In this document: positions 36,001 through 64,000 of the stretch, piece after piece
Numbering within the stretch: position 1 is the stretch's first letter
Layout: each line of letters starts with the position of its first letter
Assembly: GCA_964057225.1 (NCBI GenBank)
Contig: OZ059897.1
Coordinates: 18,600,001-18,664,000, forward strand
Direction: 5' to 3'
DNA: 64,000 bases
Source: Auanema rhodensis
Taxonomy: Eukaryota > Animalia > Nematoda
Notes under the pieces: model-generated
What the model was told of the DNA's origin: nothing
The model's input: only the letters and a program-made list of their open reading frames with translations
The model's database searches: none
Program-made: the position numbers and the translations under genes

Positions 36001-37115
36001 CTACATTGAGAAACGCTTGATACAAAAATTAGTTATGATCGTTTGAAAAATGATGCATTAGTGTATGTTGAGTTTCCATGTACACTCAACATTGCTTCCA
36101 AAAACATTTTGACAAAAATTTTTTCGAAAAATTTCAAAATAGTTTAGCAAAAAGTAGATGTTTTTAGATTCCATTTTTCAGGGCAAAGACGATGGACAAT
36201 GTTATTCAACGAAAAAATTAATTCTTCAGGGTGAAAATCGAGGATATAAGTGTGAACTTATATCAGTTGATATCTCGGTGCATTTTTAAGCTAGCGCAAA
36301 TCTGATAACACAGATCGACGCAGCTTAAAAATCCGCATCGAATGCACTATACTACATTGAGAAACGCTTGATACAAAAATTAGTTATGATCGTTTGAAAA
36401 ATGATGCATTAGTGTATGTTGAGTTTCCATGTACACTCAACATTGCTTCCAAAAACATTTTGACAAAAATTTTTTCGAAAAATTTCAAAATAGTTTAGCA
36501 AAAAGTAGATGTTTTTAGATTCCATTTTTCAAGGCAAAGACGATGGACAATGTTATTCAACGAAAAAATTAATTCTTCAGGGTGAAAATCGAGGATATAA
36601 GTGTGAACTTATATCAGTTGATATCTCGGTGCATTTTTAAGCTAGCGCAAATCTGAAAACACAGATCGACGCAGCTTAAAAATCCGCATCGAATGCACTA
36701 TACTACATTGAGAAACGTTTGATACAAAAATTAGTTATGATCGTTTGAAAAATGATGCATTAGTGTATGTTGAGTTTCCATGTACACTCAACATTGCTTC
36801 CAAAAACATTTTGACAAAAATTTTTTCGAAAAATTTCAAAATAGTTTAGCAAAAAGTAGATGTTTTTAGATTCCATTTTTCAAGGCAAAGACGATGGACA
36901 ATGTTATTCAACGAAAAAATTAATTCTTCAGGGTGAAAATCGAGGATATAAGTGTGAACTTATATCAGTTGATATCTCGGTGCATTTTCAAGCTAGCGCA
37001 AATCTGATAACACAGATCGACGCAGCTTAAAAATCCGCATCGAATGCACTATACTACATTAAGAAACGCTTAATACAAAAATTAGTTATGATCGTTTGAA
37101 AAATGATGCATTAGT
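1..37115. repeat. Satellite array, 351-bp monomer (left arm; 105 full monomers plus 260 bp)
   Basis: GTAGATGTTTTTAGATTCC... recurs at 1, 352, 703 and so on. The register is exact every 7020 bp (7021, 14041, 21061, 28081, 35101). Monomers differ by only a few substitutions. Confidence 0.99.
37111..37115 (+). repeat. Target-site duplication TTAGT (left copy)
   Basis: The empty monomer reads GATGCA-TTAGT-GTATG. Here it reads GATGCA-TTAGT-[TGTTC...]. Confidence 0.95.
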
Positions 37116-37346
37116 TGTTCTGATCTAATCAGAAATTGAAGATAATTAATGAAGAACATGAATAATCTTTACCATTTTTGAATCAATATTATAAAACACG
37201 TGAAAGTTCACGTGAGAGTCATTTTTCATTGTTTTTGTTATTAACATTTTTTATTCTTCGAGTTAACACTTATAATAATCGGTCGTTGCCAATTATTTAT
37301 AATAAATAGTTATAATATATTTTGTGTTCTTTGTTTATTCAAGACA
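37116..37346 (+). repeat. 5' LTR (231 bp)
   Basis: Begins TGTTCTGATC and ends TCAAGACA. No difference from 45588-45818 found by base-by-base reading. Confidence 0.97.
37190..37196 (+). promoter_or_regulatory. Putative LTR TATA box (TATAAAA)
   Basis: Canonical TATAAAA in the U3-like part of the LTR. The AT-rich background lowers specificity. Confidence 0.5.
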
Positions 37347-37353
37347 TAAAAAG

Positions 37354-37395
37354 TGGTGCATCGGCCGGGAATCGAACCCGGGTCGCCCGCGTGGC
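37354..37395 (-). pseudogene. 3' half of mature tRNA-Gly(GCC) including CCA (extended primer-binding site), 42 nt
   Basis: The minus strand reads GCC AC GCGGG CGAC CCGGG TTCGATT CCCGG CCGATGC A CCA. This is anticodon, 3' anticodon stem, variable loop, T arm, acceptor strand, discriminator and CCA. No 5' half or D arm is present. Confidence 0.93.
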
Positions 37396-39783
37396 TTTGA
37401 CAATCAATTCTTCAATGACAGCTAAAGGCCATTTATGTCTTTTTACGTTATTCTCTTTACAAAGGACAATTTCACCAACTACAGGAGTTGCTTTTGAATA
37501 GCTTTTACTCAAACTTTTCTTATTTGATAGATTCCTTAGTTCTTCAAGGTATGTTTCACTCCAAGCTCTCCAAAACTGATTTATGTTCGAAGTACATGAG
37601 TTTAAATACTCAATTATATCGTTTTTATTATTTATTACGTTTTTTTCCTTGTTGTCGATGTTAAATTGACAGATTAAATTTTCTGGATGAAATATTTCTA
37701 AACTCTTTGGAGTAATAATGCTATCAAAATCGTTATTTATATATGAAATTGGTCTTGAATTGATGATATTTTCAATCTCTGATAATATGACCAGTAATTC
37801 GTTATATTTCAATTTTTTCCCTTCGATATTTTTTATCAAATATTTCTTTGTTAAACCAATTAATCTTTCATAAAAACCTCCTTTCCACGGGGAATACGGA
37901 GTGATCATTTTCCATTGTATTTTCTTATTTTCGAGAAAGTTTTGAAAAATTTTCTCGGTCTTACAGAATTGAGAACCATTATCTGATATAATTTTACTTG
38001 GTATTCTCTTTCGATCAAAAAATTTTCTCAGATTATTCATTAATTCCTTGCTAGAGCTATCATTAGCGACATCTAAGTATACTGCTCGTGTACATAGACA
38101 AGTAATTAGCATAATCCAAACTTTTTTATCAGCGTTGGTTTCATTTTTCACAATTAATGGGCCGGCGTAGTCAATGCCTATGTTTTCATATGGTTTAAAT
38201 TTTAAAACTCTTTCAACTGGTAATTGAGGAAAATCTGGATACTTATAAGGTCTGTTGTTAGCTTTTTTGCATTTCATACATTGGGAAATTGTTACATTTA
38301 TACAGCTTTTCAGTTTTATAATGAAAAATTGTTTACGTATTATCGCCATCATTGTTTCTCTGTTAGCATGAAGTGAAATTTCATGCATATACTTAATCAT
38401 GAGATTTGTGAAAAATTTTTTCCCATATAATAATACTGGATAACTGTTATTCAACTTATTTGCGTTACCTAATCGGCCTCGTACTCTTAAAATACCATCT
38501 TCATCTTGAACAATGTCTAATTTTTTAAATTTTTCTTTTTTCAATTCATTACAATTCTGCAATTGATGTGCTTTTATCATAATTTTTTCACAAATTATGT
38601 TTCTTTTCGAACTATCCGATTTTTCAAAATCTTCTATCAATTTCTTAAAACATCCTTTTGAGGTTTTTCTAAGTTTAGATATGAATATCAAAATATTTTT
38701 CACAATTCTTAATAATTTTGGATATGAAGATACTTTTTGAGCTAGGAAGTCCAAATCTTGGCTTTCCTTTGTTAAGTTCTCGTTTTTTATTAGAAAATTA
38801 ATGATTTTTGATTCTGCATTACTGTTTTCTTGTCCTACAACTTCTTTTAACGTTTTAATATTATTTTGTCGTTGAATTTCATCTTTGTACCATATTGGAC
38901 CTTTCAACCATTCTTTGTATTTTTCTTCCTGAGGTTCTAGACCTCTTGTTGGTACGTCAGCTGGATTTTTCTTGGTATTCACGTAAAAATATTCTATTTT
39001 TCCGTTTTCTTTTTCCAAGTCGTCTGTTAGATGTTTGATTTTCTCCAATCTGTTTCTAACATAGACTCTTTTTGTGGGACTTTTAAAAATCCAGCATAAA
39101 ACTACTTGGGAATCAGAAAATATTTTAATATTTTGTATGTTTATATTTATTTCTTTTATATTTTCTTTCATCATCTTAACACCTAAAAGAACTGCAGACA
39201 ATTCTTTCATTGGAATTGATCCTTCAATCATTGTGGAAGATTTTACGCAAAGAAGTTCAATTTCTTCAATAATTCCGTTTTTGACATATGCTAAATAGCC
39301 TGTTGCAGCAATTACGTCTCTAGATGCGTCTGTGAACAATAAATATTCCACATATTCATTACTTTTCAATATGGATCTATCTATTTCAATTTTTTGATTT
39401 TCGATTTTACTGTATATTTCTTTCCATTCTTCTATCAAATTTTCTGACAATTCATCATCCCATTTTATTTGACTTTCCCACAGTTTTTTGAGGAAAAGTC
39501 GTGATTTCAATGTTATAGGATGAGTTATACCTATTGGATCAAAAATCGCGTTTATGAAACTCAGAATATTTCTTTTCGTTGTCTGTTTTTCTTTCCATTC
39601 TGGAATTTTCACTTCCAATTTATCTGTTACTGTATTGTAATTCATTCCTAATATTTTAAAACTTGTTTCTTTTATTTTATCTTTTTCTGGGATTTTACTA
39701 TTTTCTGATCCACAGTTTGTATAAAATTCTCTTATATTCATTCCGATTTTTGAAAATAAATTTTTTACTTCTGCGTATAACTT
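37396..39783 (-). pseudogene. pol: Captured inverted pol fragment of a second BEL/Pao family (RT C-terminus/connection, RNase H, integrase truncated in its C-terminal domain)
   Basis: Core of ORF 37339..39741(-). Homology extends upstream of the ATG (KLYAEVKNLFSKIGMNIREFY vs host KLYEEIKNLFSKVNMNVREFY) and ends at ...EELIVK. Motifs: FTDAS, FSDSQ, NPAD, HHCC, DYAGP, SDNG, GGFYE. 796 codons with no stop. The last 18 aa of the listed ORF come from tRNA and LTR sequence. Confidence 0.92.
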
Positions 39784-39794
39784 GGTGCATCGGC
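39783..39794 (+). promoter_or_regulatory. Second (native) primer-binding site TGGTGCATCGGC, tRNA-Gly
   Basis: Identical to 37354-37365, followed by an AT-rich leader and the gag ATG 120 nt later. Confidence 0.9.
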
Positions 39795-39913
39795 AAAACT
39801 AAGTAAAACAAATAAATAAGTAAATAAGTGAATATATATATATTTATTTTATTGCTTATATAAAAAAAAAAAACCGAATTAATTAATATTATTGATAATC
39901 ATATAACTCAAAA

Positions 39914-41851
39914 ATGAGTTCAAAATCAGAAACAATCAGATTAAGTAAACAAGGATGCCAAAGCAGAATAAATGGTAATGCTCCTAAAAGAGAAGTTATG
40001 TTGAAAGTCATAGAAAAAGTTGATAACGGAACACACTTAAATACAAACGATATGGATGTAATAAGTGGATACATTGAAAATCTAAGAAATGTATGTGAGC
40101 ATATTTTAATTATGAAAGCTGATGAAGACTATGACATAGTCAAAGAAATAATTGAAAATTCTCATCTAGTGGAGGAAAATAACGAAATTAGAGAAGAGTT
40201 AAACGATTTGAAAAAAATCATAAATGATGAAAACCAAAATGATAGAAAATTGAAAATCAAGTTTAATATGATATATAAACAATTACTAGAAACTTTACCT
40301 GAATGTACTGATTTGAAAACCAAAACTCTGTTCAAATTTGAGCAGAATAAACAAATAGAAACTTCGTCAACAGTATCTTCAAGTTCTGAAACAGAAGAAT
40401 TAAGTGGTTACACTAAAAAACTAAGACGTAGTGCAGAAAGTTCAAAAAGTAATCAAAAACGTAATAACATAAATTGTAAACTTGAAAAAGTACTGGAAAG
40501 ATTAAACTTTTTAGAGGAAAAATTTGACTCAGAAAGCGATAGAGAAATTAAATATATAAATGATAAATCTTTAAAAAAGAGAATCAATAAATCAAATCAC
40601 GAAACATCAGACAGACATGAAAATAATCTATATATCCCAAGACCAAAAATAAAATTAACCACGTTTGATGGAAATATCACGGAATACCCAGAATTTATGA
40701 GTATTTTTGAATTACTCATTGATAGTAACCGTAATATGTCAGAAACCGAAAAATTTTATCATTTAAAATCGAGTTTGAGTGGTAATGCTGAACATTTATT
40801 GAAATCAATTACTTTAACAGCAGAAAATTATAAAAAAGCATTGTTTCTACTTAAGAAAACATATGATAAACCTCAAGAACGAAAGAAAGTATTAAAACAA
40901 AGACTAAGAGATTTGCCAAAAGCATATAAAAATGCAGTAAATATGCAAGAAATTTATAATGAAATTCAATCCATTATAACGGGATTAAGGGAGCATAGAG
41001 ACATTGACAATGAAGAAATAATTGAAACTATAATAGAAAAATTCCCAGAACATATACAAAGAGAAATCTTCAATATAGAAAGTAATGATGGCATAGAATT
41101 GAACATTGATGAAATCATAGAAATAATCGGTAACTCAATTAAATGCGAAAAAATGATACAAAATAAAAGAGAAAACTACAACAGCACGTTGAACTTTTTA
41201 ATGAATAACAGAAACTATCAAAATTATAATAGAAAACCTTATAACTATCAGAATGATCATGAAACAAGAAGAAAAAACGATAGATTTTCTAATGGTTTTC
41301 AAAATTTGAAATATAATAATGAGAATAATGATAGAAATAGACATCAAACACAGTATGCAAACAAATTTCAAGCAATAACAAGTAAAAACAATGATTCATT
41401 AGAAAACAAAAACTGTGTATTCTGTAATAGAAATAATCATAGCAGTTTAAATTGTAAAATTATCATGGATATCAGAGAAAAAAGGAACATCATCAAGCAA
41501 AATAGTCTTTGCTGGATTTGTTACAGTAAAAATCATAATTCTTTTCAATGTAATCTTGAAAGATGTCAAAATTGTATGGAACACCATAATTCAAAAATTT
41601 GCATGAAAAATCATTATAAAAATAACGCCAAGGACGTAATTAGCATAAATTCTCAATATGCTAATCACCCTACAAGCAACAATCACATGCAATCTCAATA
41701 TGCTAATGAGGTCGGTACTCCTCAAAATACAGTAAACGGAAGAAATAAAGCAGGAAATGAATATAAATGGAAACCCAATTTAACAGGAGGTAATAATGAG
41801 CCAATTGGACAAAATTTTCGATTGGAATCAAGAATAACAGAGAAAGGGTAA
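39914..41851 (+). CDS. gag: BEL/Pao Gag (645 aa)
   Basis: DUF1759-like capsid region (PKIKLTTFDGNITEYPEF...EKFYHLKSSLSGNA). Three CCHC knuckles: CVFC-H-C, CWIC-H-C, CQNC-H-C. Confidence 0.92.
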   Translation: MSSKSETIRLSKQGCQSRINGNAPKREVMLKVIEKVDNGTHLNTNDMDVISGYIENLRNVCEHILIMKADEDYDIVKEIIENSHLVEENNEIREELNDLKKIINDENQNDRKLKIKFNMIYKQLLETLPECTDLKTKTLFKFEQNKQIETSSTVSSSSETEELSGYTKKLRRSAESSKSNQKRNNINCKLEKVLERLNFLEEKFDSESDREIKYINDKSLKKRINKSNHETSDRHENNLYIPRPKIKLTTFDGNITEYPEFMSIFELLIDSNRNMSETEKFYHLKSSLSGNAEHLLKSITLTAENYKKALFLLKKTYDKPQERKKVLKQRLRDLPKAYKNAVNMQEIYNEIQSIITGLREHRDIDNEEIIETIIEKFPEHIQREIFNIESNDGIELNIDEIIEIIGNSIKCEKMIQNKRENYNSTLNFLMNNRNYQNYNRKPYNYQNDHETRRKNDRFSNGFQNLKYNNENNDRNRHQTQYANKFQAITSKNNDSLENKNCVFCNRNNHSSLNCKIIMDIREKRNIIKQNSLCWICYSKNHNSFQCNLERCQNCMEHHNSKICMKNHYKNNAKDVISINSQYANHPTSNNHMQSQYANEVGTPQNTVNGRNKAGNEYKWKPNLTGGNNEPIGQNFRLESRITEKG

Positions 41852-43932
41852 TAAGAGAAAAAGATGATAATCATTTTAATAACGAAATTGAAATTTTTAA
41901 TGAACCAAATACATTTTTTATATCTTTTTACAAAGCAAAAAGCTCTAATTTAGTAATTTTGTATGACTCTTGCTCAAATAAGTCATTTATCAAAAAACAA
42001 ACCGCAGAAAAGTTGAATTTACCAATATTAAGCAATAAAATGTTGCCAATAGGTACTATTGGTGATAAAGAAGAAATACTTAAATCAAAAGAAGTAATTT
42101 GGGGTATACCTGAGATAAAAGAAAATATAAATCTATTAGCTATTGAGAAAATAACAGATTTTGTGAATATGCCTTCAATACATGAGACGGAAATGAGAAA
42201 AATTGAGCAATATAGCAAGAAAAACATGAAATTAATTTTCGAAAAGGGCAATATTGAACCAGATATATTAATAGGAATGGATCAATTTTGGAAATTAGTT
42301 CCTAAAACATTTGAAAGCATTGATTTGAAAAACGGATTAGTAGTAATTCCAACAAAATTGAACCCTATCATATCAAAACATAAAACGTTTGATGAAATAT
42401 CAGATAGTGAAAACGATGAAACCGAATGTGGTTCAGATCTGAAATGTTTCCTAATAGGAAATAAACTGAAAGATGAGAATAAAAAACTGAATAAAGATGA
42501 AATGAGAAAATACGAAGATGATTTAGCTTGGAAACAATTTCACGAAAATGTAAAAATGAAAAATGGAAGAATTAATGTAAAATTTCCCATAAAACCAAAT
42601 ATTCAGTCAATTAACGATAATTATGGTAAAAGTATAAGGTTTACTAGGATACCTTTCGGTGTCAATAGTTCACCATTCTTATTAGCAGCAAGTATAATAT
42701 ATTTTTTAAATAAGGAAAAAAGAGATATTAATGAAGATATAATGAAAAATATTTATGTTGATAATATTATGCTGAAAGTAAGTAATGTCAATCAAAATTT
42801 AAAACTATATGAAGAAATAAAAAATCTTTTCTCAAAGGTTAATATGAATGTAAGAGAATTCTATAGTAATAACCCAAATATTATGCAAATGATCCCACAA
42901 AAAGATAAAATGAAGGAAGGAAGCATGAAAATCTTGGGAATGAACTATGAGAAAGAAAGTGATGAATTCATTATTGAATTCCCAAATTGGAAAGCTAATA
43001 ACCTAACAAGAAAAAATGTTTTGAGCTTCATTAATTCAGTTTTTGATCCTATAGGTATATCTCAACCTATCATGCTGAAAGCAAAACTATTTATGAAAAA
43101 ATTATGGGATTTAAAAAACGATTGGAACGATGAAATCACTGAAAAAGATTTGATTAATGAATGGTTAAATATAACCGAAAAACTAAGAAATAAGTTTTTA
43201 AAATTTCCAAGACAAATCCTAAGAAATCAAAATCCAGTAAAATTAGAATATTGTTTATTCACTGACGCATCTAAAGATGTGATAGCTGCAGTAGCATATA
43301 TAATTGAATACAATGATCAAAATAATATAATTAATATCCAATTTTTAAATTCTAAATCTTCAACAATGATAGAAGGTACAATTCCGATGAAAGAATTATC
43401 AGCAATGGTACTAGGATTTAAATTAATTAGAGAAAATTTTAAAGAAATGAACGTTAATATAAGAAATATTAAAATTTTCACTGATTCACAAGTCGTACTT
43501 CATTGGATATCAAAGAATCCTCAGAAAAAATTATATATTCGAAATAGAATAGAAAAAATAAACGAAATCAGTCAAGAAATGAAAGAAAAAGATAAAGTAA
43601 TAGAATATTTTTATGTTAAATCAGAAGCAAACCCTGCAGATATTCCTACAAGAGGAGCAGATATAGATGAAGCTAAATTTGAAATGTGGAAAAATGGTCC
43701 TTATTGGATGAAAGAGGAAAATTTATTTAAAGCCAATGTTATAACACAGCAAAACATTATTAATCCAGAAATTAGTAAAAGTAAAATCATAAATCTATTG
43801 ATAAATACAAAACGAAACAATTTATATGAAAATTTTGAAAGTTTAGCAGGAAAATATTCTTCCTTTTCCGAATATATGTCTATTATTAAAGTAATAGTTA
43901 TGTTTGCATGCAAACTAAGAAAAGAAAAATAG
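41800..43932 (+). pseudogene. pol: Pol, 5' part: aspartic protease, internally deleted RT, RNase H
   Basis: The frame opens at 41800; the listed 41959 start is only a TTG. Protease: ILYDSCSNKSFI...PDILIGMD. RT: RFTRIPFGVNSSPFLL and YVDN (42754-42765). RNase H: FTDAS, FTDSQ, NPAD. Ends in TAG at 43930-43932. Confidence 0.88.
41812..41818 (+). promoter_or_regulatory. Putative -1 ribosomal frameshift heptamer A AAT TTT
   Basis: Correctly phased X XXY YYZ in the gag frame, inside the gag/pol overlap (41800-41851). Pol is in the -1 frame. Confidence 0.7.
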
Positions 43933-45468
43933 ATGAATTCGAATAAAATCATGGAAGAACTCAGAGATGCAAAATCTGAAGGCATAAAAAATAAATTAAT
44001 CGAGAAATTGATAATAAAAATGCATCAAGAACAGAATATAAATAGCCTAGAAAAGAAAAAATATAAAAGTCTGGATATCATAAAGGATGAATATAATATT
44101 CTAAGAGTAAGAGGCAGAATGGGTAATGATAATAAGAGTATTGATGAATATCCGATACTATTATTTGGAAAAACAAATTATTCTAATTTATTTTTGAACT
44201 ATATGCATGGTATCATGTTACATCCTGCAAGAAACACATTCATATCAATGATAAGAAAGAATTTTTTTATAATAAAATTGAAGAATATAGTAAACACAAT
44301 CAATTCAAGATGCTTAAAATGTAAAAAATTAAATAACAGACCGTATAAATATCCAGATTTTCCACAGTTACCTATACATAGAATTAATAAATTCAAACCA
44401 TATGAAAATATTGGTGTTGATTTTGCTGGACCATTATACGTCAAAAAAGAAAATGAAACTAAAAAAGTGTGGATTATGCTTATAACATGTTTATGCACGA
44501 GAGCTATATATATTGATTTAGTTCATGATTGTACATCCAAAGAATTCATTTTGGTACTAAGAAAATTTTTTGCAAGAAAAAGAATACCGAAAATAATATA
44601 TAGTGATAACGGCTCACAATTTATTAAAGGAGAAAAAATTTTGAAAGAATTTTCGAGCAAGAACTTTATTCAATGGAAGTTCATAACTCCACATTCTCCC
44701 TGGAAAGGAGGTTTTTATGAAAAAATGATCGGAATCACTAAAAAATATCTAATGAAAAACTTAGATGTAAGAATAATAGAACTGAGAGAACTTGAAACAA
44801 TTTTAGCTGAGATAGAAACTGTAATAAATAACCGACCTCTCACTAATATTGAAACAGATTTTGATAAAATTATAACTCCAATGAGCTTAGAAATTTATCA
44901 TCCAAGTAATATATTACCATGTTATATGGGAAATGAAAATAAAACTAATTTAGAGAATAAAAGAGAAATTAAAGAATGGATGGAAATTTGCAATGAAAAA
45001 GTAGAAAAATTTTGGCTTGAATGGACAGGTCATTATCTTGAAGAATTAAGAGCTAATAATATTAAGTATAGAAATATGAAAAACTATTCAAAAAACATTC
45101 CGAAAGTAGGAGATATAGTATTGTGCGAAAAAATTGGCACCAAAAGAAATAAATGGCCTATGGTTCTTATAAAAGAATTGATCATATCTCCAGATAAACA
45201 GATAAGAACGGCCATTATAAAAAATTCTGAAGGAAATTTATTAAGAAAAAGTATAAAACAATTAATTCCTCTTGAAATTAACCAACAATACGATGAAAAT
45301 CATAAGGAAACGGAAGATGAAACCAAAGATGAAGAATCAGAACCAAAATCAGAAATTCACCAAAAACAACAAGATTGTATATCAAATACAATAATTCCAA
45401 GAGGTACTGAACAATGGAACCATCGCTTGAGACCAATAGCTAGAATAAACTATAAAGAATATTTATGA
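43933..45468 (+). CDS. pol: Pol, 3' part: integrase (same frame as the upstream pol)
   Basis: HHCC (H-x4-H...CLKC), catalytic D (GVDFAGP), D (SDNG), E (GGFYE). Pao C-terminal domain (KVGDIVL...KWP...IRTA...LIPLE) followed by an acidic tail. Confidence 0.9.
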   Translation: MNSNKIMEELRDAKSEGIKNKLIEKLIIKMHQEQNINSLEKKKYKSLDIIKDEYNILRVRGRMGNDNKSIDEYPILLFGKTNYSNLFLNYMHGIMLHPARNTFISMIRKNFFIIKLKNIVNTINSRCLKCKKLNNRPYKYPDFPQLPIHRINKFKPYENIGVDFAGPLYVKKENETKKVWIMLITCLCTRAIYIDLVHDCTSKEFILVLRKFFARKRIPKIIYSDNGSQFIKGEKILKEFSSKNFIQWKFITPHSPWKGGFYEKMIGITKKYLMKNLDVRIIELRELETILAEIETVINNRPLTNIETDFDKIITPMSLEIYHPSNILPCYMGNENKTNLENKREIKEWMEICNEKVEKFWLEWTGHYLEELRANNIKYRNMKNYSKNIPKVGDIVLCEKIGTKRNKWPMVLIKELIISPDKQIRTAIIKNSEGNLLRKSIKQLIPLEINQQYDENHKETEDETKDEESEPKSEIHQKQQDCISNTIIPRGTEQWNHRLRPIARINYKEYL

Positions 45469-45577
45469 AATTAATGTTTTGGTCGTTGGGAGCCATCACG
45501 TAACAAAAACGTGAAAAAGATGTAAAGAAACAAAATAATAATAAAAATCAAATTAAGGAATCAAATACGTCTTCTTT

Positions 45578-45587
45578 GAGGCGGGAA
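45578..45587 (+). promoter_or_regulatory. Polypurine tract GAGGCGGGAA
   Basis: Purine-rich run abutting the TG of the 3' LTR. Confidence 0.85.
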
Positions 45588-45818
45588 TGTTCTGATCTAA
45601 TCAGAAATTGAAGATAATTAATGAAGAACATGAATAATCTTTACCATTTTTGAATCAATATTATAAAACACGTGAAAGTTCACGTGAGAGTCATTTTTCA
45701 TTGTTTTTGTTATTAACATTTTTTATTCTTCGAGTTAACACTTATAATAATCGGTCGTTGCCAATTATTTATAATAAATAGTTATAATATATTTTGTGTT
45801 CTTTGTTTATTCAAGACA
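45588..45818 (+). repeat. 3' LTR (231 bp)
   Basis: Identical to the 5' LTR and immediately preceded by the PPT. Confidence 0.97.
45773..45778 (+). terminator. Putative polyadenylation signal AATAAA in the 3' LTR (copy at 37301-37306)
   Basis: AATAAA lies 40 nt before the LTR end and is followed by a GT/T-rich tract (TTTTGTGTTCTTTGTTT). Confidence 0.5.
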
Positions 45819-45823
45819 TTAGT
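45819..45823 (+). repeat. Target-site duplication TTAGT (right copy)
   Basis: [...AAGACA]-TTAGT-GTATG. Confidence 0.95.
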
Positions 45824-48800
45824 GTATGTTGAGTTTCCATGTACACTCAACATTGCTTCCAAAAACATTTTGACAAAAATTTTTTCGAAAAATTTCAAAA
45901 TAGTTTAGCAAAAAGTAGATGTTTTTAGATTCCATTTTTCAAGGCAAAGACGATGGACAATGTTATTCAACGAAAAAATTAATTCTTCAGGGTGAAAATC
46001 GAGGATATAAGTGTGAACTTATATCAGTTGATATCTCGGTGCATTTTTAAGCTAGCGCAAATCTGATAACACAGATCGACGCAGCTTAAAAATCCGCATC
46101 GAATGCACTATACTACATTAAGAAACGCTTAATACAAAAATTAGTTATGATCGTTTGAAAAATGATGCATTAGTGTATGTTGAGTTTCCATGTACACTCA
46201 ACATTGCTTCCAAAAACATTTTGACAAAAATTTTTTCGAAAAATTTCAAAATAGTTTAGCAAAAAGTAGATGTTTTTAGATTCCATTTTTCAAGGCAAAG
46301 ACGATGGACAATGTTATTCAACGAAAAAATTAATTCTTCAGGGTGAAAATCGAGGATATAAGTGTGAACTTATATCAGTTGATATCTCGGTGCATTTTTA
46401 AGCTAGCGCAAATCTGATAACACAGATCGACGCAGCTTAAAAATCCGCATCGAATGCACTATACTACATTGAGAAACGCTTGATACAAAAATTAGTTATG
46501 AGCGTTTGAAAAATGATGCATTAGTGTATGTTGAGTTTCCATGTACACTCAACATTGCTTCCAAAAACATTTTGACAAAAATTTTTTCGAAAAATTTCAA
46601 AATAGTTTAGCAAAAAGTAGATGTTTTTAGATTCCATTTTTCAAGGCAAAGACGATGGACAATGTTATTCAACGAAAAAATTAATTCTTCAGGGTGAAAA
46701 TCGAGGATATAAGTGTGAACTTATATCAGTTGATATCTCGGTGCATTTTTAAGCTAGCGCAAATCTGATAACACAGATCGACGCAGCTTAAAAATCCGCA
46801 TCGAATGCACTATACTACATTGAGAAACGCTTGATACAAAAATTAGTTATGAGCGTTTGAAAAATGATGCATTAGTGTATGTTGAGTTTCCATGTACACT
46901 CAACATTGCTTCCAAAAACATTTTGACAAAAATTTTTTCGAAAAATTTCAAAATAGTTTAGCAAAAAGTAGATGTTTTTAGATTCCATTTTTCAAGGCAA
47001 AGACGATGGACAATGTTATTCAACGAAAAAATTAATTCTTCAGGGTGAAAATCGAGGATATAAGTGTGAACTTATATCAGTTGATATCTCGGTGCATTTT
47101 CAAGCTAGCGCAAATCTGATAACACAGATCGACGCAGCTTAAAAATCCGCATCGAATGCACTATACTACATTAAGAAACGCTTAATACAAAAATTAGTTA
47201 TGATCGTTTGAAAAATGATGCATTAGTGTATGTTGAGTTTCCATGTACACTCAACATTGCTTCCAAAAACATTTTGACAAAAATTTTTTCGAAAAATTTC
47301 AAAATAGTTTAGCAAAAAGTAGATGTTTTTAGATTCCATTTTTCAAGGCAAAGACGATGGACAATGTTATTCAACGAAAAAATTAATTCTTCAGGGTGAA
47401 AATCGAGGATATAAGTGTGAACTTATATCAGTTGATATCTCGGTGCATTTTTAAGCTAGCGCAAATCTGATAACACAGATCGACGCAGCTTAAAAATCCG
47501 CATCGAATGCACTATACTACATTAAGAAACGCTTAATACAAAAATTAGTTATAATCGTTCGAAAAATGATGCATTAGTGTATGTTGAGTTTCCATGTACA
47601 CTCAACATTGCTTCCAAAAACATTTTGACAAAAATTTTTTCGAAAAATTTCAAAATAATTTAGCAAAAAGTAGAGGTTTTTAGATTCCATTTTTCAAGGC
47701 AAAGACGATGGACAATGTTATTCAACGAAAAAATTAATTCTTCAGGGTGAAAATCGAGGATATAAGTGTGAACTTATATCAGTTGATATCTCGGTGCATT
47801 TTTAAGCTAGCGCAAATCTGATAACACAGATCGACGCAGCTTAAAAATCCGCATCGAATGCACTATACTACATTAAGAAACGCTTGATACAAAAATTAGT
47901 TATGATCGTTTGAAAAATGATGCATTAGTGTATGTTGAGTTTCCATGTACACTCAACATTGCTTCCAAAAACATTTTGACAAAAATTTTTTCGAAAAATT
48001 TCAAAATAATTTAGCAAAAAGTAGATGTTTTTAGATTCCATTTTTTAAGGCAAAGACGATGGACAATGTTATTCAACGAAAAAATTAATTCTTCAGGGTG
48101 AAAATTGAGGATATAAGTGTGAACTTATATCAGTTGATATCTCGGTGCATTTTTAAGCTAGCGCAAATCTGATAACACAGATCGACGCAGCTTAAAAATC
48201 CGCATCGAATGCACTATACTACATTGAGAAACGCTTGATACAAAAATTAGTTATGATCGTTTGAAAAATGATGCATTAGTGTATGTTGAGTTTCCATGTA
48301 CACTCAACATTGCTTCCAAAAACATTTTGACAAAAATTTTTTCGAAAAATTTCAAAATAGTTTAGCAAAAAGTAGATGTTTTTAGATTCCATTTTTCAGG
48401 GCAAAGACGATGGACAATGTTATTCAACGAAAAAATTAATTCTTCAGGGTGAAAATCGAGGATATAAGTGTGAACTTATATCAGTTGATATCTCGGTGCA
48501 TTTTTAAGCTAGCGCAAATCTGATAACACAGATCGACGCAGCTTAAAAATCCGCATCGAATGCACTATACTACATTGAGAAACGCTTGATACAAAAATTA
48601 GTTATGATCGTTTGAAAAATGATGCATTAGTGTATGTTGAGTTTCCATGTACACTCAACATTGCTTCCAAAAACATTTTGACAAAAATTTTTTCGAAAAA
48701 TTTCAAAATAGTTTAGCAAAAAGTAGATGTTTTTAGATTCCATTTTTCAGGGCAAAGACGATGGACAATGTTATTCAACGAAAAAATTAATTCTTCAGGG

Positions 48801-51800
48801 TGAAAATCGAGGATATAAGTGTGAACTTATATCAGTTGATATCTCGGTGCATTTTTAAGCTAGCGCAAATCTGATAACACAGATCGACGCAGCTTAAAAA
48901 TCCGCATCGAATGCACTATACTACATTGAGAAACGCTTGATACAAAAATTAGTTATGATCGTTTGAAAAATGATGCATTAGTGTATGTTGAGTTTCCATG
49001 TACACTCAACATTGCTTCCAAAAACATTTTGACAAAAATTTTTTCGAAAAATTTCAAAATAGTTTAGCAAAAAGTAGATGTTTTTAGATTCCATTTTTCA
49101 AGGCAAAGACGATGGACAATGTTATTCAACGAAAAAATTAATTCTTCAGGGTGAAAATCGAGGATATAAGTGTGAACTTATATCAGTTGATATCTCGGTG
49201 CATTTTTAAGCTAGCGCAAATCTGAAAACACAGATCGACGCAGCTTAAAAATCCGCATCGAATGCACTATACTACATTGAGAAACGTTTGATACAAAAAT
49301 TAGTTATGATCGTTTGAAAAATGATGCATTAGTGTATGTTGAGTTTCCATGTACACTCAACATTGCTTCCAAAAACATTTTGACAAAAATTTTTTCGAAA
49401 AATTTCAAAATAGTTTAGCAAAAAGTAGATGTTTTTAGATTCCATTTTTCAAGGCAAAGACGATGGACAATGTTATTCAACGAAAAAATTAATTCTTCAG
49501 GGTGAAAATCGAGGATATAAGTGTGAACTTATATCAGTTGATATCTCGGTGCATTTTCAAGCTAGCGCAAATCTGATAACACAGATCGACGCAGCTTAAA
49601 AATCCGCATCGAATGCACTATACTACATTAAGAAACGCTTAATACAAAAATTAGTTATGATCGTTTGAAAAATGATGCATTAGTGTATGTTGAGTTTCCA
49701 TGTACACTCAACATTGCTTCCAAAAACATTTTGACAAAAATTTTTTCGAAAAATTTCAAAATAGTTTAGCAAAAAGTAGATGTTTTTAGATTCCATTTTT
49801 CAAGGCAAAGACGATGGACAATGTTATTCAACGAAAAAATTAATTCTTCAGGGTGAAAATCGAGGATATAAGTGTGAACTTATATCAGTTGATATCTCGG
49901 TGCATTTTTAAGCTAGCGCAAATCTGATAACACAGATCGACGCAGCTTAAAAATCCGCATCGAATGCACTATACTACATTAAGAAACGCTTAATACAAAA
50001 ATTAGTTATGATCGTTTGAAAAATGATGCATTAGTGTATGTTGAGTTTCCATGTACACTCAACATTGCTTCCAAAAACATTTTGACAAAAATTTTTTCGA
50101 AAAATTTCAAAATAGTTTAGCAAAAAGTAGATGTTTTTAGATTTCATTTTTCAAGGCAAAGACGATGGACAATGTTATTCAACGAAAAAATTAATTCTTC
50201 AGGGTGAAAATCGAGGATATAAGTGTGAACTTATATCAGTTGATATCTCGGTGCATTTTTAAGCTAGCGCAAATCTGATAACACAGATCGACGCAGCTTA
50301 AAAATCCGCATCGAATGCACTATACTACATTAAGAAACGCTTAATACAAAAATTAGTTATGATCGTTTGAAAAATGATGCATTAGTGTATGTTGAGTTTC
50401 CATGTACACTCAACATTGCTTCCAAAAACATTTTGACAAAAATTTTTTCGAAAAATTTCAAAATAGTTTAGCAAAAAGTAGATGTTTTTAGATTTCATTT
50501 TTCAAGGCAAAGACGATGGACAATGTTATTCAACGAAAAAATTAATTCTTCAGGGTGAAAATCGAGGATATAAGTGTGAACTTATATCAGTTGATATCTC
50601 GGTGCATTTTTAAGCTAGCGCAAATCTGATAACACAGATCGACGCAGCTTAAAAATCCGCATCGAATGCACTATACTACATTGAGAAACGCTTGATACAA
50701 AAATTAGTTATGATCGTTTGAAAAATGATGCATTAGTGTATGTTGAGTTTCCATGTACACTCAACATTGCTTCCAAAAACATTTTGACAAAAATTTTTTC
50801 GAAAAATTTCAAAATAGTTTAGCAAAAAGTAGATGTTTTTAGATTCCATTTTTCAAGGCAAAGACGATGGACAATGTTATTCAACGAAAAAATTAATTCT
50901 TCAGGGTGAAAATCGAGGATATAAGTGTGAACTTATATCAGTTGATATCTCGGTGCATTTTCAAGCTAGCGCAAATCTGATAACACAGATCGACGCAGCT
51001 TAAAAATCCGCATCGAATGCACTATACTACATTAAGAAACGCTTAATACAAAAATTAGTTATGATCGTTTGAAAAATGATGCATTAGTGTATGTTGAGTT
51101 TCCATGTACACTCAACATTGCTTCCAAAAACATTTTGACAAAAATTTTTTCGAAAAATTTCAAAATAGTTTAGCAAAAAGTAGATGTTTTTAGATTCCAT
51201 TTTTCAAGGCAAAGACGATGGACAATGTTATTCAACGAAAAAATTAATTCTTCAGGGTGAAAATCGAGGATATAAGTGTGAACTTATATCAGTTGATATC
51301 TCGGTGCATTTTTAAGCTAGCGCAAATCTGATAACACAGATCGACGCAGCTTAAAAATCCGCATCGAATGCACTATACTACATTAAGAAACGCTTAATAC
51401 AAAAATTAGTTATGATCGTTTGAAAAATGATGCATTAGTGTATGTTGAGTTTCCATGTACACTCAACATTGCTTCCAAAAACATTTTGACAAAAATTTTT
51501 TCGAAAAATTTCAAAATAGTTTAGCAAAAAGTAGATGTTTTTAGATTTCATTTTTCAAGGCAAAGACGATGGACAATGTTATTCAACGAAAAAATTAATT
51601 CTTCAGGGTGAAAATCGAGGATATAAGTGTGAACTTATATCAGTTGATATCTCGGTGCATTTTTAAGCTAGCGCAAATCTGATAACACAGATCGACGCAG
51701 CTTAAAAATCCGCATCGAATGCACTATACTACATTGAGAAACGCTTGATACAAAAATTAGTTATGATCGTTTGAAAAATGATGCATTAGTGTATGTTGAG

Positions 51801-54800
51801 TTTCCATGTACACTCAACATTGCTTCCAAAAACATTTTGACAAAAATTTTTTCGAAAAATTTCAAAATAGTTTAGCAAAAAGTAGATGTTTTTAGATTCC
51901 ATTTTTCAAGGCAAAGACGATGGACAATGTTATTCAACGAAAAAATTAATTCTTCAGGGTGAAAATCGAGGATATAAGTGTGAACTTATATCAGTTGATA
52001 TCTCGGTGCATTTTCAAGCTAGCGCAAATCTGATAACACAGATCGACGCAGCTTAAAAATCCGCATCGAATGCACTATACTACATTAAGAAACGCTTAAT
52101 ACAAAAATTAGTTATGATCGTTTGAAAAATGATGCATTAGTGTATGTTGAGTTTCCATGTACACTCAACATTGCTTCCAAAAACATTTTGACAAAAATTT
52201 TTTCGAAAAATTTCAAAATAGTTTAGCAAAAAGTAGATGTTTTTAGATTCCATTTTTCAAGGCAAAGACGATGGACAATGTTATTCAACGAAAAAATTAA
52301 TTCTTCAGGGTGAAAATCGAGGATATAAGTGTGAACTTATATCAGTTGATATCTCGGTGCATTTTTAAGCTAGCGCAAATCTGATAACACAGATCGACGC
52401 AGCTTAAAAATCCGCATCGAATGCACTATACTACATTAAGAAACGCTTAATACAAAAATTAGTTATAATCGTTCGAAAAATGATGCATTAGTGTATGTTG
52501 AGTTTCCATGTACACTCAACATTGCTTCCAAAAACATTTTGACAAAAATTTTTTCGAAAAATTTCAAAATAATTTAGCAAAAAGTAGATGTTTTTAGATT
52601 CCATTTTTCAAGGCAAAGACGATGGACAATGTTATTCAACGAAAAAATTAATTCTTCAGGGTGAAAATCGAGGATATAAGTGTGAACTTATATCAGTTGA
52701 TATCTCGGTGCATTTTTAAGCTAGCGCAAATCTGATAACACAGATCGACGCAGCTTAAAAATCCGCATCGAATGCACTATACTACATTAAGAAACGCTTG
52801 ATACAAAAATTAGTTATGATCGTTTGAAAAATGATGCATTAGTGTATGTTGAGTTTCCATGTACACTCAACATTGCTTCCAAAAACATTTTGACAAAAAT
52901 TTTTTCGAAAAATTTCAGAATAATTTAGCAAAAAGTAGATGTTTTTAGATTCCATTTTTTAAGGCAAAGACGATGGACAATGTTATTCAACGAAAAAATT
53001 AATTCTTCAGGGTGAAAATTGAGGATATAAGTGTGAACTTATATCAGTTGATATCTCGGTGCATTTTTAAGCTAGCGCAAATTTGATAACACAGATCGAC
53101 GCAGCTTAAAAATCCGCATCGAATGCACTATACTACATTGAGAAACGCTTGATACAAAAATTAGTTATGATCATTTGAAAAATGATGCATTAGTGTATGT
53201 TGAGTTTCCATGTACACTCAACATTGCTTCCAAAAACATTTTGACAAAAATTTTTTCGAAAAATTTCAAAATAGTTTAGCAAAAAGTAGATGTTTTTAGA
53301 TTCCATTTTTCAGGGCAAAGACGATGGACAATGTTATTCAACGAAAAAATTAATTCTTCAGGGTGAAAATCGAGGATATAAGTGTGAACTTATATCAGTT
53401 GATATCTCGGTGCATTTTTAAGCTAGCGCAAATCTGATAACACAGATCGACGCAGCTTAAAAATCCGCATCGAATGCACTATACTACATTGAGAAACGCT
53501 TAATACAAAAATTAGTTATGATCGTTTGAAAAATGATGCATTAGTGTATGTTGAGTTTCCATGTACACTCAACATTGCTTCCAAAAACATTTTGACAAAA
53601 ATTTTTTCGAAAAATTTCAAAATAGTTTAGCAAAAAGTAGATGTTTTTAGATTCCATTTTTCAAGGCAAAGACGATGGACAATGTTATTCAACGAAAAAA
53701 TTAATTCTTCAGGGTGAAAATCGAGGATATAAGTGTGAACTTATATCAGTTGATATCTCGGTGCATTTTTAAGCTAGCGCAAATCTGATAACACAGATCG
53801 ACGCAGCTTAAAAATCCGCATCGAATGCACTATACTACATTAAGAAACGCGTGATACAAAAATTAGTTATGATCGTTTGAAAAATGATGCATTAGTGTAT
53901 GTTGAGTTTCCATGTACACTCAACATTGCTTCCAAAAACATTTTGACAAAAATTTTTTCGAAAAATTTCAAAATAATTTAGCAAAAAGTAGATGTTTTTA
54001 GATTCCATTTTTTAAGGCAAAGACGATGGACAATGTTATTCAACGAAAAAATTAATTCTTCAGGGTGAAAATTGAGGATATAAGTGTGAACTTATATCAG
54101 TTGATATCTCGGTGCATTTTTAAGCTAGCGCAAATCTGATAACACAGATCGACGCAGCTTAAAAATCCGCATCGAATGCACTATACTACATTGAGAAACG
54201 CTTGATACAAAAATTAGTTATGATCGTTTGAAAAATGATGCATTAGTGTATGTTGAGTTTCCATGTACACTCAACATTGCTTCCAAAAACATTTTGACAA
54301 AAATTTTTTCGAAAAATTTCATAATAGTTTAGCAAAAAGTAGATGTTTTTAGATTCCATTTTTCAGGGCAAAGACGATGGACAATGTTATTCAACGAAAA
54401 AATTAATTCTTCAGGGTGAAAATCGAGGATATAAGTGTGAACTTATATCAGTTGATATCTCGGTGCATTTTTAAGCTAGCGCAAATCTGATAACACAGAT
54501 CGACGCAGCTTAAAAATCCGCATCGAATGCACTATACTACATTGAGAAACGCTTGATACAAAAATTAGTTATGATCGTTTGAAAAATGATGCATTAGTGT
54601 ATGTTGAGTTTCCATGTACACTCAACATTGCTTCCAAAAACATTTTGACAAAAATTTTTTCGAAAAATTTCAAAATAGTTTAGCAAAAAGTAGATGTTTT
54701 TAGATTCCATTTTTCAAGGCAAAGACGATGGACAATGTTATTCAACGAAAAAATTAATTCTTCAGGGTGAAAATCGAGGATATAAGTGTGAACTTATATC

Positions 54801-57800
54801 AGTTGATATCTCGGTGCATTTTTAAGCTAGCGCAAATCTGAAAACACAGATCGACGCAGCTTAAAAATCCGCATCGAATGCACTATACTACATTGAGAAA
54901 CGTTTGATACAAAAATTAGTTATGATCGTTTGAAAAATGATGCATTAGTGTATGTTGAGTTTCCATGTACACTCAACATTGCTTCCAAAAACATTTTGAC
55001 AAAAATTTTTTCGAAAAATTTCAAAATAGTTTAGCAAAAAGTAGATGTTTTTAGATTCCATTTTTCAGGGCAAAGACGATGGACAATGTTATTCAACGAA
55101 AAAATTAATTCTTCAGGGTGAAAATCGAGGATATAAGTGTGAACTTATATCAGTTGATATCTCGGTGCATTTTTAAGCTAGCGTAAATCTGATAACACAG
55201 ATCGACGCAGCTTAAAAATCCGCATCGAATGCACTATACTACATTGAGAAACGCTTGATACAAAAATTAGTTATGATCGTTTGAAAAATGATGCATTAGT
55301 GTATGTTGAGTTTCCATGTACACTCAACATTGCTTCCAAAAACATTTTGACAAAAATTTTTTCGAAAAATTTCAAAATAGTTTAGCAAAAAGTAGATGTT
55401 TTTAGATTCCATTTTTCAAGGCAAAGACGATGGACAATGTTATTCAACGAAAAAATTAATTCTTCAGGGTGAAAATTGAGGATATAAGTGTGAACTTATA
55501 TCAGTTGATATCTCGGTGCATTTTTAAGCTAGCGCAAATCTGATAACACAGATCGACGCAGCTTAAAAATCCGCATCGAATGCACTATACTACATTGAGA
55601 AACGCTTGATACAAAAATTAGTTATGATCGTTTGAAAAATGATGCATTAGTGTATGTTGAGTTTCCATGTACACTCAACATTGCTTCCAAAAACATTTTG
55701 ACAAAAATTTTTTCGAAAAATTTCAAAATAGTTTAGCAAAAAGTAGATGTTTTTAGATTCCATTTTTCAGGGCAAAGACGATGGACAATGTTATTCAACG
55801 AAAAAATTAATTCTTCAGGGTGAAAATCGAGGATATAAGTGTGAACTTATATCAGTTGATATCTCGGTGCATTTTTAAGCTAGCGTAAATCTGATAACAC
55901 AGATCGACGCAGCTTAAAAATCCGCATCGAATGCACTATACTACATTGAGAAACGCTTGATACAAAAATTAGTTATGATCGTTTGAAAAATGATGCATTA
56001 GTGTATGTTGAGTTTCCATGTACACTCAACATTGCTTCCAAAAACATTTTGACAAAAATTTTTTCGAAAAATTTCAAAATAGTTTAGCAAAAAGTAGATG
56101 TTTTTAGATTCCATTTTTCAAGGCAAAGACGATGGACAATGTTATTCAACGAAAAAATTAATTCTTCAGGGTGAAAATTGAGGATATAAGTGTGAACTTA
56201 TATCAGTTGATATCTCGGTGCATTTTTAAGCTAGCGCAAATCTGATAACACAGATCGACGCAGCTTAAAAATCCGCATCGAATGCACTATACTACATTGA
56301 GAAACGCTTGATACAAAAATTAGTTATGATCGTTTGAAAAATGATGCATTAGTGTATGTTGAGTTTCCATGTACACTCAACATTGCTTCCAAAAACATTT
56401 TGACAAAAATTTTTTCGAAAAATTTCAAAATAGTTTAGCAAAAAGTAGATGTTTTTAGATTCCATTTTTCAGGGCAAAGACGATGGACAATGTTATTCAA
56501 CGAAAAAATTAATTCTTCAGGGTGAAAATCGAGGATATAAGTGTGAACTTATATCAGTTGATATCTCGGTGCATTTTTAAGCTAGCGTAAATCTGATAAC
56601 ACAGATCGACGCAGCTTAAAAATCCGCATCGAATGCACTATACTACATTGAGAAACGCTTGATACAAAAATTAGTTATGATCGTTTGAAAAATGATGCAT
56701 TAGTGTATGTTGAGTTTCCATGTACACTCAACATTGCTTCCAAAAACATTTTGACAAAAATTTTTTCGAAAAATTTCAAAATAGTTTAGCAAAAAGTAGA
56801 TGTTTTTAGATTCCATTTTTCAAGGCAAAGACGATGGACAATGTTATTCAACGAAAAAATTAATTCTTCAGGGTGAAAATCGAGGATATAAGTGTGAACT
56901 TATATCAGTTGATATCTCGGTGCATTTTTAAGCTAGCGCAAATCTGAAAACACAGATCGACGCAGCTTAAAAATCCGCATCGAATGCACTATACTACATT
57001 GAGAAACGTTTGATACAAAAATTAGTTATGATCGTTTGAAAAATGATGCATTAGTGTATGTTGAGTTTCCATGTACACTCAACATTGCTTCCAAAAACAT
57101 TTTGACAAAAATTTTTTCGAAAAATTTCAAAATAGTTTAGCAAAAAGTAGATGTTTTTAGATTCCATTTTTCAAGGCAAAGACGATGGACAATGTTATTC
57201 AACGAAAAAATTAATTCTTCAGGGTGAAAATCGAGGATATAAGTGTGAACTTATATCAGTTGATATCTCGGTGCATTTTCAAGCTAGCGCAAATCTGATA
57301 ACACAGATCGACGCAGCTTAAAAATCCGCATCGAATGCACTATACTACATTAAGAAACGCTTAATACAAAAATTAGTTATGATCGTTTGAAAAATGATGC
57401 ATTAGTGTATGTTGAGTTTCCATGTACACTCAACATTGCTTCCAAAAACATTTTGACAAAAATTTTTTCGAAAAATTTCAAAATAGTTTAGCAAAAAGTA
57501 GATGTTTTTAGATTCCATTTTTCAAGGCAAAGACGATGGACAATGTTATTCAACGAAAAAATTAATTCTTCAGGGTGAAAATCGAGGATATAAGTGTGAA
57601 CTTATATCAGTTGATATCTCGGTGCATTTTTAAGCTAGCGCAAATCTGATAACACAGATCGACGCAGCTTAAAAATCCGCATCGAATGCACTATACTACA
57701 TTAAGAAACGCTTAATACAAAAATTAGTTATGATCGTTTGAAAAATGATGCATTAGTGTATGTTGAGTTTCCATGTACACTCAACATTGCTTCCAAAAAC

Positions 57801-63800: not shown

Positions 63801-64000
63801 AATAGTTTAGCAAAAAGTAGATGTTTTTAGATTCCATTTTTCAAGGCAAAGACGATGGACAATGTTATTCAACGAAAAAATTAATTCTTCAGGGTGAAAA
63901 TCGAGGATATAAGTGTGAACTTATATCAGTTGATATCTCGGTGCATTTTTAAGCTAGCGCAAATCTGATAACACAGATCGACGCAGTTTAAAAATCCGCA
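45819..64000. repeat. Satellite array, 351-bp monomer (right arm; ~52 monomers, same orientation)
   Basis: The array resumes exactly where it was interrupted. Monomer start 48021 minus 8708 (element plus TSD) equals 1+351x112, so the register is preserved. Confidence 0.99.

Follow-up and report, generated by a model that had tools for sequence, protein, structure and literature searches.

A 42-nucleotide complement of tRNA-Gly(GCC) at the primer binding site of a chimeric BEL/Pao insertion in the nematode Auanema rhodensis

The BEL/Pao elements (Belpaoviridae, Semotivirus) are LTR retrotransposons of 4.2-10 kb, with LTRs of 0.2-1.2 kb, in which gag and pol, the latter in the order protease-RT-RNase H-integrase, lie between a primer binding site (PBS) following the 5' LTR and a polypurine tract (PPT) of ~10 nt. 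The PBS matches tRNA-Arg or tRNA-Gly and is given as 18 nt long in the ICTV profile of the group, whose replication is poorly understood (PMC8742986).

How far the tRNA primer itself is copied has been described for other retroelements. The original prediction for the locus reported here took it as established that copying halts after about 18 nt, at m1A58. This is indeed the retrovirus rule in the available part of PMC13191261, but Ty3 stops after 12 nt and the primer copy is not inherited in either Ty1 or Ty3, according to the available parts of PMC5371799 and PMC7472051, so that BEL/Pao elements need not follow the 18-nt rule. For HIV-1, the same part of PMC13191261 describes over-run past A58 to the anticodon loop as a minor product, mostly unfit for normal transfer, and the copying of unmodified tRNA to its 5' end. 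The 3' fragments of tRNAs are usually discussed as inhibitors of LTR elements in what is available of PMC7472051.

We report a BEL/Pao insertion in which the tRNA complement at the PBS is 42 nt long. The window, by which we mean the whole stretch of 64,000 nucleotides analysed, is made up of a 351-bp satellite in ~157 units, broken once by an 8.7-kb element. The features of the element, in window coordinates, are as follows:

37111..37115, + strand: left copy (TTAGT) of the target site duplication (TSD), 5 bp, within the 351-bp satellite
37116..37346, + strand: 5' LTR, 231 bp, TG..CA, of the high-depth family 'A'; identical to the 3' LTR and seen in run contigs
37347..37353, + strand: spacer of 7 nt from the LTR end to the tRNA complement, read from the sequence
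37354..37395, + strand: 42-nt complement of tRNA-Gly(GCC) from CCA to G34, made up of a 12-nt PBS (37354-37365) and a 30-nt over-copy
37396..37398, + strand: three T, outside both the tRNA match and the matches of the donor contigs; likely non-templated
37399..39782, - strand: fragment 'B', inverted pol sequence from a related BEL/Pao family (RT end, RNase H region, integrase, part of DUF5641)
39783..39794, + strand: second PBS, 12 nt, tRNA-Gly, with no LTR before it; belongs to the captured donor piece
39899..41851, + strand: gag of the low-depth family 'C' (DUF1759, three Cys/His knuckles), separated from the second PBS by a leader
41800..43932, + strand: pol frame with protease (DUF1758), RT broken by the C/A junction and Peptidase_A17 region; in-frame stop at its end
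42635..42640, + strand: 6-nt overlap between the end of donor 'C' and the resumption of family 'A' (microhomology junction)
43933..45468, + strand: integrase part of family 'A' (Integrase_H2C2, rve, DUF5641)
45578..45587, + strand: PPT
45588..45818, + strand: 3' LTR, identical to the 5' LTR
45819..45823, + strand: right copy of the TSD, after which the satellite is back in register

The satellite that received this BEL/Pao insertion (1-37115 and 45819-64000) is highly homogeneous, with 98-100% identity, and has very high depth in all four of the sequencing runs considered below. The empty target site is present in 156 copies within the window.

By structure and domains the element belongs to BEL/Pao, with part of its RT missing. 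Its span (37116-45818, 8703 bp) and its LTRs are within the range of the group. DUF1759, DUF1758, Peptidase_A17 (Pao), Integrase_H2C2, rve and DUF5641 occur in that order (Pfam), the gag carries three Cys/His knuckles, and the protein relatives of the element have the same Pfam set. It resembles the described members (PMC8742986) in its gag and pol, in the order of the pol domains, in its tRNA-Gly PBS, at 37354, and in its PPT; it differs from them in the length of the PBS, which is 12 nt at two places here and 42 nt at one, and in holding an inverted pol piece, a second PBS inside the element and a broken RT. The insertion is recent, as its identical LTRs and its 5-bp target duplication attest, and these two features, together with the return of the satellite in register, identify it as the product of an integrase. 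About 139 aa of the RT are missing at the C/A junction when compared with P0001 and an in-frame stop stands at 43930, so that this copy was presumably mobilised in trans. The spacer between LTR and PBS is usually 2-3 nt long; the 7 nt found here are longer, and are seemingly shared by a related contig with a joint at 37365.

The original prediction had described 37354-37395 as complementary to tRNA-Gly(GCC) over 42 nt, from CCA to G34, and this is borne out by an exact match to a tRNA-Gly(GCC) gene plus CCA. Without the CCA part, the remaining 39 nt correspond to positions 33-71 of a 71-nt tRNA-Gly(GCC) gene called by ARAGORN (L002), in which position 33 is the first anticodon base. The match also stops where it was said to stop, being broken by the T at 37396, and position 58 was copied without a mismatch as claimed, 37372 being the correct T opposite A58. 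An exact match of 42 nt with 74% GC, in surroundings of 26-28% GC, is not a matter of chance. The argument that the CCA indicates a mature tRNA template needs a correction: the CCA is inside an ordinary 12-nt PBS and is therefore no proof by itself that the extra 30 nt were copied from mature tRNA.

A gene that matches the copy exists. The 39 gene-encoded nucleotides have exact matches in seven metagenome stretches, which in six of the seven make up the 3' portion of a tRNA-Gly(GCC) gene called by ARAGORN, with the match of L001 lying at the locus edge, and in none of the seven is the match followed by CCA. In addition, 3-5 contigs per run continue behind 37395 in each of four sequencing runs (X1, X6, X7 and X9; three studies), and their majority line starts with bases complementary to U33 and to the anticodon stem, that is with the tRNA 5' half. 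As the contigs run from 37395 into the 5' half, the matching gene is present in organisms with this element family, which answers the question of a host tRNA on which the prediction had hung. In the window itself ARAGORN finds no tRNA genes.

Two other identities for the copy were considered and rejected. A match to tmRNA in Rfam is below threshold and covers the T-arm and CCA end only, which is the tRNA-like part of that molecule; a bacterial tRNA or tmRNA origin fits neither the metagenome tRNA-Gly matches, which do not encode CCA, nor the runs, which contain the matching gene. As a separate observation, a single contig of 1490 bp carries a variant tRNA-Gly(GCC) gene with changes in the D-arm, which has a standard copy on either side (L001 280-350, L002 6-76).

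The element is a chimera, in which the LTRs and 3' half of family A surround a 5.2-kb donor piece (37399-42640). The run-contig tables on which this and later comparisons draw (X1, X6, X7 and X9) give figures among the matches listed, that is 32 of 52170 pieces, 15 of 84 joints and 24 of 325 loose ends. Among these, the contigs of donor B match from 37399 only and then run on for 352, 352 and 225 letters (X1, X6 and X7, respectively); in X9 no piece among the matches listed extends to 37399. Contigs of C match up to 42640 and then run on for 683, 673 and 203 letters, and for the high-depth A contigs the match begins at 42635, with a further 3114 (X1) and 1410 (X9) letters running on, in both cases among the matches listed. 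In X1 (39706-39873) and in X7 (39680-40414) individual contigs span the joint that unites B, the second PBS and C. Taken together, the run-on contigs of B, C and A and the bridged joint imply that 37399-42640 was one pre-existing locus apart from family A, and that the element is recombinant. Among the matches listed in the four runs, no contig bridges 37395-37399 or the C/A junction, so that outside the window the chimera lacks support from reads; the contigs listed pass both junction points without a break in the runs that show them, which argues that the runs are without this chimera.

It follows that the second PBS, which had been described as the element's other PBS of 12 nt, was given its correct length, at 39783, but not its correct owner, for it arrived with the captured 5.2-kb piece. 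The DNA of fragment B is ~65% identical to the sense pol, and the best protein relative of its frame, from Auanema sp., has 57% identity over the scored region; it is one of 64 relatives found and is not the donor itself. No loci with relatives were found in viral contigs. A nested insertion of B into C or A was rejected, since neither end of B is bordered by an LTR or by a target duplication.

The parents themselves offer some further observations. The depth of family A (42635-45585) and that of the donor are uneven, at ~148 against 16-25 in X1, 320-445 against 8 in X7 and 23-30 against 6-13 in X9, which suggests a recent, uneven amplification of family A, depth not being the same as copy number. 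In the donor locus (39782-39794) the antisense pol fragment abuts the PBS at its first base, with no LTR, in an arrangement bridged in two runs from two studies; this joint has the look of a second-strand transfer that had failed earlier and independently. The inverted pol frame (37339-39798, minus strand) is open for 819 codons, interrupted neither by the second PBS nor by the three T or the tRNA copy, and this is probably a coincidence combined with a young donor.

The anatomy of the insertion, its two parents and its three junctions are read directly from the DNA and the contigs, and the order of events that we propose to connect them is a probable one: over-run plus-strand strong-stop DNA was joined end to end after the normal strand transfer had failed, and the resulting chimera was inserted by integrase. 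Family-A RNA would first have been primed by tRNA-Gly. The minus strand would then have left A at 42635, by way of the 6-nt microhomology, for a co-packaged transcript of the donor locus, and have copied the donor gag, the PBS and the inverted B as far as 37399, 2.4 kb past the donor PBS. A minus strand ending beyond the donor PBS has a 3' end without the PBS complement. Meanwhile, plus-strand DNA started from the PPT would have copied the LTR, the spacer and the tRNA, past A58 to G34. Next, the two free 3' ends may have been linked directly to each other, three untemplated bases being added between them, and integrase would have put the product into the satellite. Ordinary transfer would hide such an over-copy, and its failure may have preserved this one. 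The reverse-transcription route gains support from the over-copy being in register with the tRNA that fits both PBS.

Why the copy ends at G34 is a narrower question. Given the reverse-transcription route, the simplest view, for one event, is run-off at a nick in the anticodon loop, and we regard the chances of this as evenly balanced. If not, the stop at G34 would reflect RT leaving an intact, A58-undermodified tRNA. Beyond nt 19, 7 of the 55 possible end points (13%) are in the anticodon loop, so that coincidence is not remote. The missing 5' piece of the tRNA would be 32 nt long, which falls inside the 31-36 nt of the tRNA halves found in males of C. elegans, where fragments of Gly-GCC stand out; it counts against a nick that these fragments are mostly 5' and not 3' (PMC13136342, in the part available). 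In the available part of PMC9942843, human cut sites yield 5' pieces of 34-35 or 30-31 nt, not 32, and are thus 1-3 nt off, a further point against a nick. In its favour, the same part has it that nicks in the anticodon loops of tRNA-Gly(GCC) block RT, and yeast RNase T2 gives both halves of tRNA-Gly(GCC) (PMC12140624, available part). Since the copying of an intact tRNA-Gly can proceed almost to the 5' end, falling 4-5 nt short of it (PMC12220202, likewise), the stop at G34 calls for an explanation. The junction of tRNA copy and donor resembles two physical ends, which counts for the nick. We know of no blocking base at G34 of tRNA-Gly. A stop at the modified base 37, as in HIV, was rejected, because copying went on beyond 37 as far as 34. 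The same copy would be left by a whole tRNA with a nick as by a free 3' half, and it does not tell the two apart.

It is a tentative suggestion, less probable than its contrary, that the insertion preserves, as a fossil in the germline, an LTR retrotransposon whose tRNA-Gly primer had a nick between U33 and G34 and no block at A58, and that failed transfers in this BEL/Pao clade record the ends and modification state of their primers. On this reading, failed strand transfer is seen twice in the element, in the 42-nt copy and in the LTR-less second PBS.

The most durable of the other explanations, though an unlikely one, dispenses with an RNA template. A family-A element would have broken, after its insertion, at the end of the 12-nt PBS, invaded a tRNA-Gly gene by 9 shared nt, copied 30 nt and then the donor, and rejoined A through the 6-nt microhomology. 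The position of the CCA complement within an ordinary 12-nt PBS allows this, a DNA template would account for the lack of a misread at A58, and both the donor and tRNA genes with this sequence exist as DNA. Microhomology and short untemplated inserts are signatures of repair as well, and fit here too. Repair nevertheless requires that the break fell precisely where the PBS ends and that two ectopic templates were used, whereas the tRNA register follows from reverse transcription with nothing further to be assumed; moreover, what the runs list behind 37115 are empty sites (36-364 contigs per run) and not a plain A insertion.

Slightly less probable still is that an earlier chimera was re-copied as a non-autonomous element, the 42 nt being inherited in a small sub-lineage and uninformative on the last priming. 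Compared with the run contigs, the window has 11 differing letters out of 2337 in B and 12 out of 2951 in A with its LTRs identical, and both LTRs share one letter that the runs read otherwise, as a re-copied element might; strain differences explain these substitutions equally well, and 37399, 42635 and 42640 are passed unbroken by the contigs listed (three studies), with no sign of sister copies.

The original prediction went on to propose that tRNA halves may prime this family. A regular use of 3' tRNA-Gly halves or nicked tRNAs by this BEL/Pao family, with long PBS common, would agree with the end point inside the anticodon loop, but the evidence comes from one aberrant, chimeric copy, and the proposal is very improbable in that form. 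Whether the 42 nt are fixed in the family can be answered in the negative: a related contig departs from the window after 37365, that is after a 12-nt PBS (X1 and X6, among the matches listed), and the PBS of the donor ends likewise after 12 nt, at 39794. Among the matches listed, the majority line behind 37395 is mixed, with a non-tRNA tail in X1, X6 and X7, and three contigs of X9 have a match starting at 37354 with other sequence before it. These mixed lines near 37395 and 37354 hint at other genomic partial copies of tRNA-Gly, which would favour regular priming by halves, but they could be tRNA pseudogenes. The 5' end of a primer is, besides, traceless in normal copies, so that one aberrant copy cannot show a rule.

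Donor microhomology, the other source that had been envisaged for the GCC, apparently played no part, as the donor contigs match only from 37399 in three runs; this is read from alignment end points, and 1-3 nt are possible. With the donor alignments starting at 37399, the three bases before it are explained by neither template.

A false join of family A with the donor locus and a tRNA gene during assembly, which the two private junctions without a bridging contig among the matches listed and the position inside a long satellite might invite, is hardly credible, given that the exact TSD in satellite register, the in-register extension of the PBS, the three extra bases and the 6-nt microhomology are unlike mis-joins and that the runs need not stem from the source strain.

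The 42-nt copy is thus likely to be an unusual, integrated reverse-transcription error, of a kind whose long tRNA-Gly copies beside LTRs are already known (MMLV, HIV). Being one defective copy, it counts as a curiosity and not as a new system. If the reverse-transcription route holds, the RT of a BEL/Pao element is able to get past A58 of tRNA-Gly in vivo, and co-packaging across families followed by end-to-end rescue can still yield an integrated product. Should the G34 end recur in independent copies, this would be genomic evidence for nicked-tRNA priming; and if the nicked-primer reading is true, a survey of broken copies could show nicked tRNAs or 3' halves priming nematode retrotransposition.

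Among known systems, priming by half a tRNA is the mark of the copia/Ty5 type, in which the 5' part of the tRNA primes and the PBS matches the anticodon arm. The present case resembles it in having a tRNA end in the anticodon arm; both of its PBS start at the CCA complement, however, and it is a different thing. A literature search with partial coverage turned up no BEL/Pao element described with a PBS as long as a 3' tRNA half; the Cer7 element of C. elegans is said to have a long tRNA-like primer sequence, a possible precedent. The over-extended plus-strand strong-stop DNA of HIV-1 (PMC13191261, available part) is closer, in that the primer is copied past A58 to give a minor product that ends in the anticodon loop and does not undergo normal transfer, but it stops at the bulky ms2t6A37 of tRNA-Lys3, whereas the present copy stops at G34 of tRNA-Gly and became part of an integrated product. 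Closest in appearance are an MMLV circle junction (Colicelli and Goff) and an HIV provirus, in which, as described in the available part of PMC12220202, mature tRNA-Gly with its CCA was copied far beyond 18 nt and adjoins an LTR in a rearranged genome. Those copies are nearly of full length (4-5 nt short) and come from a non-cognate tRNA; the present copy differs from them in deriving from the cognate primer, in lying at the PBS position, in ending in the anticodon loop and in being part of a germline insertion with a TSD.
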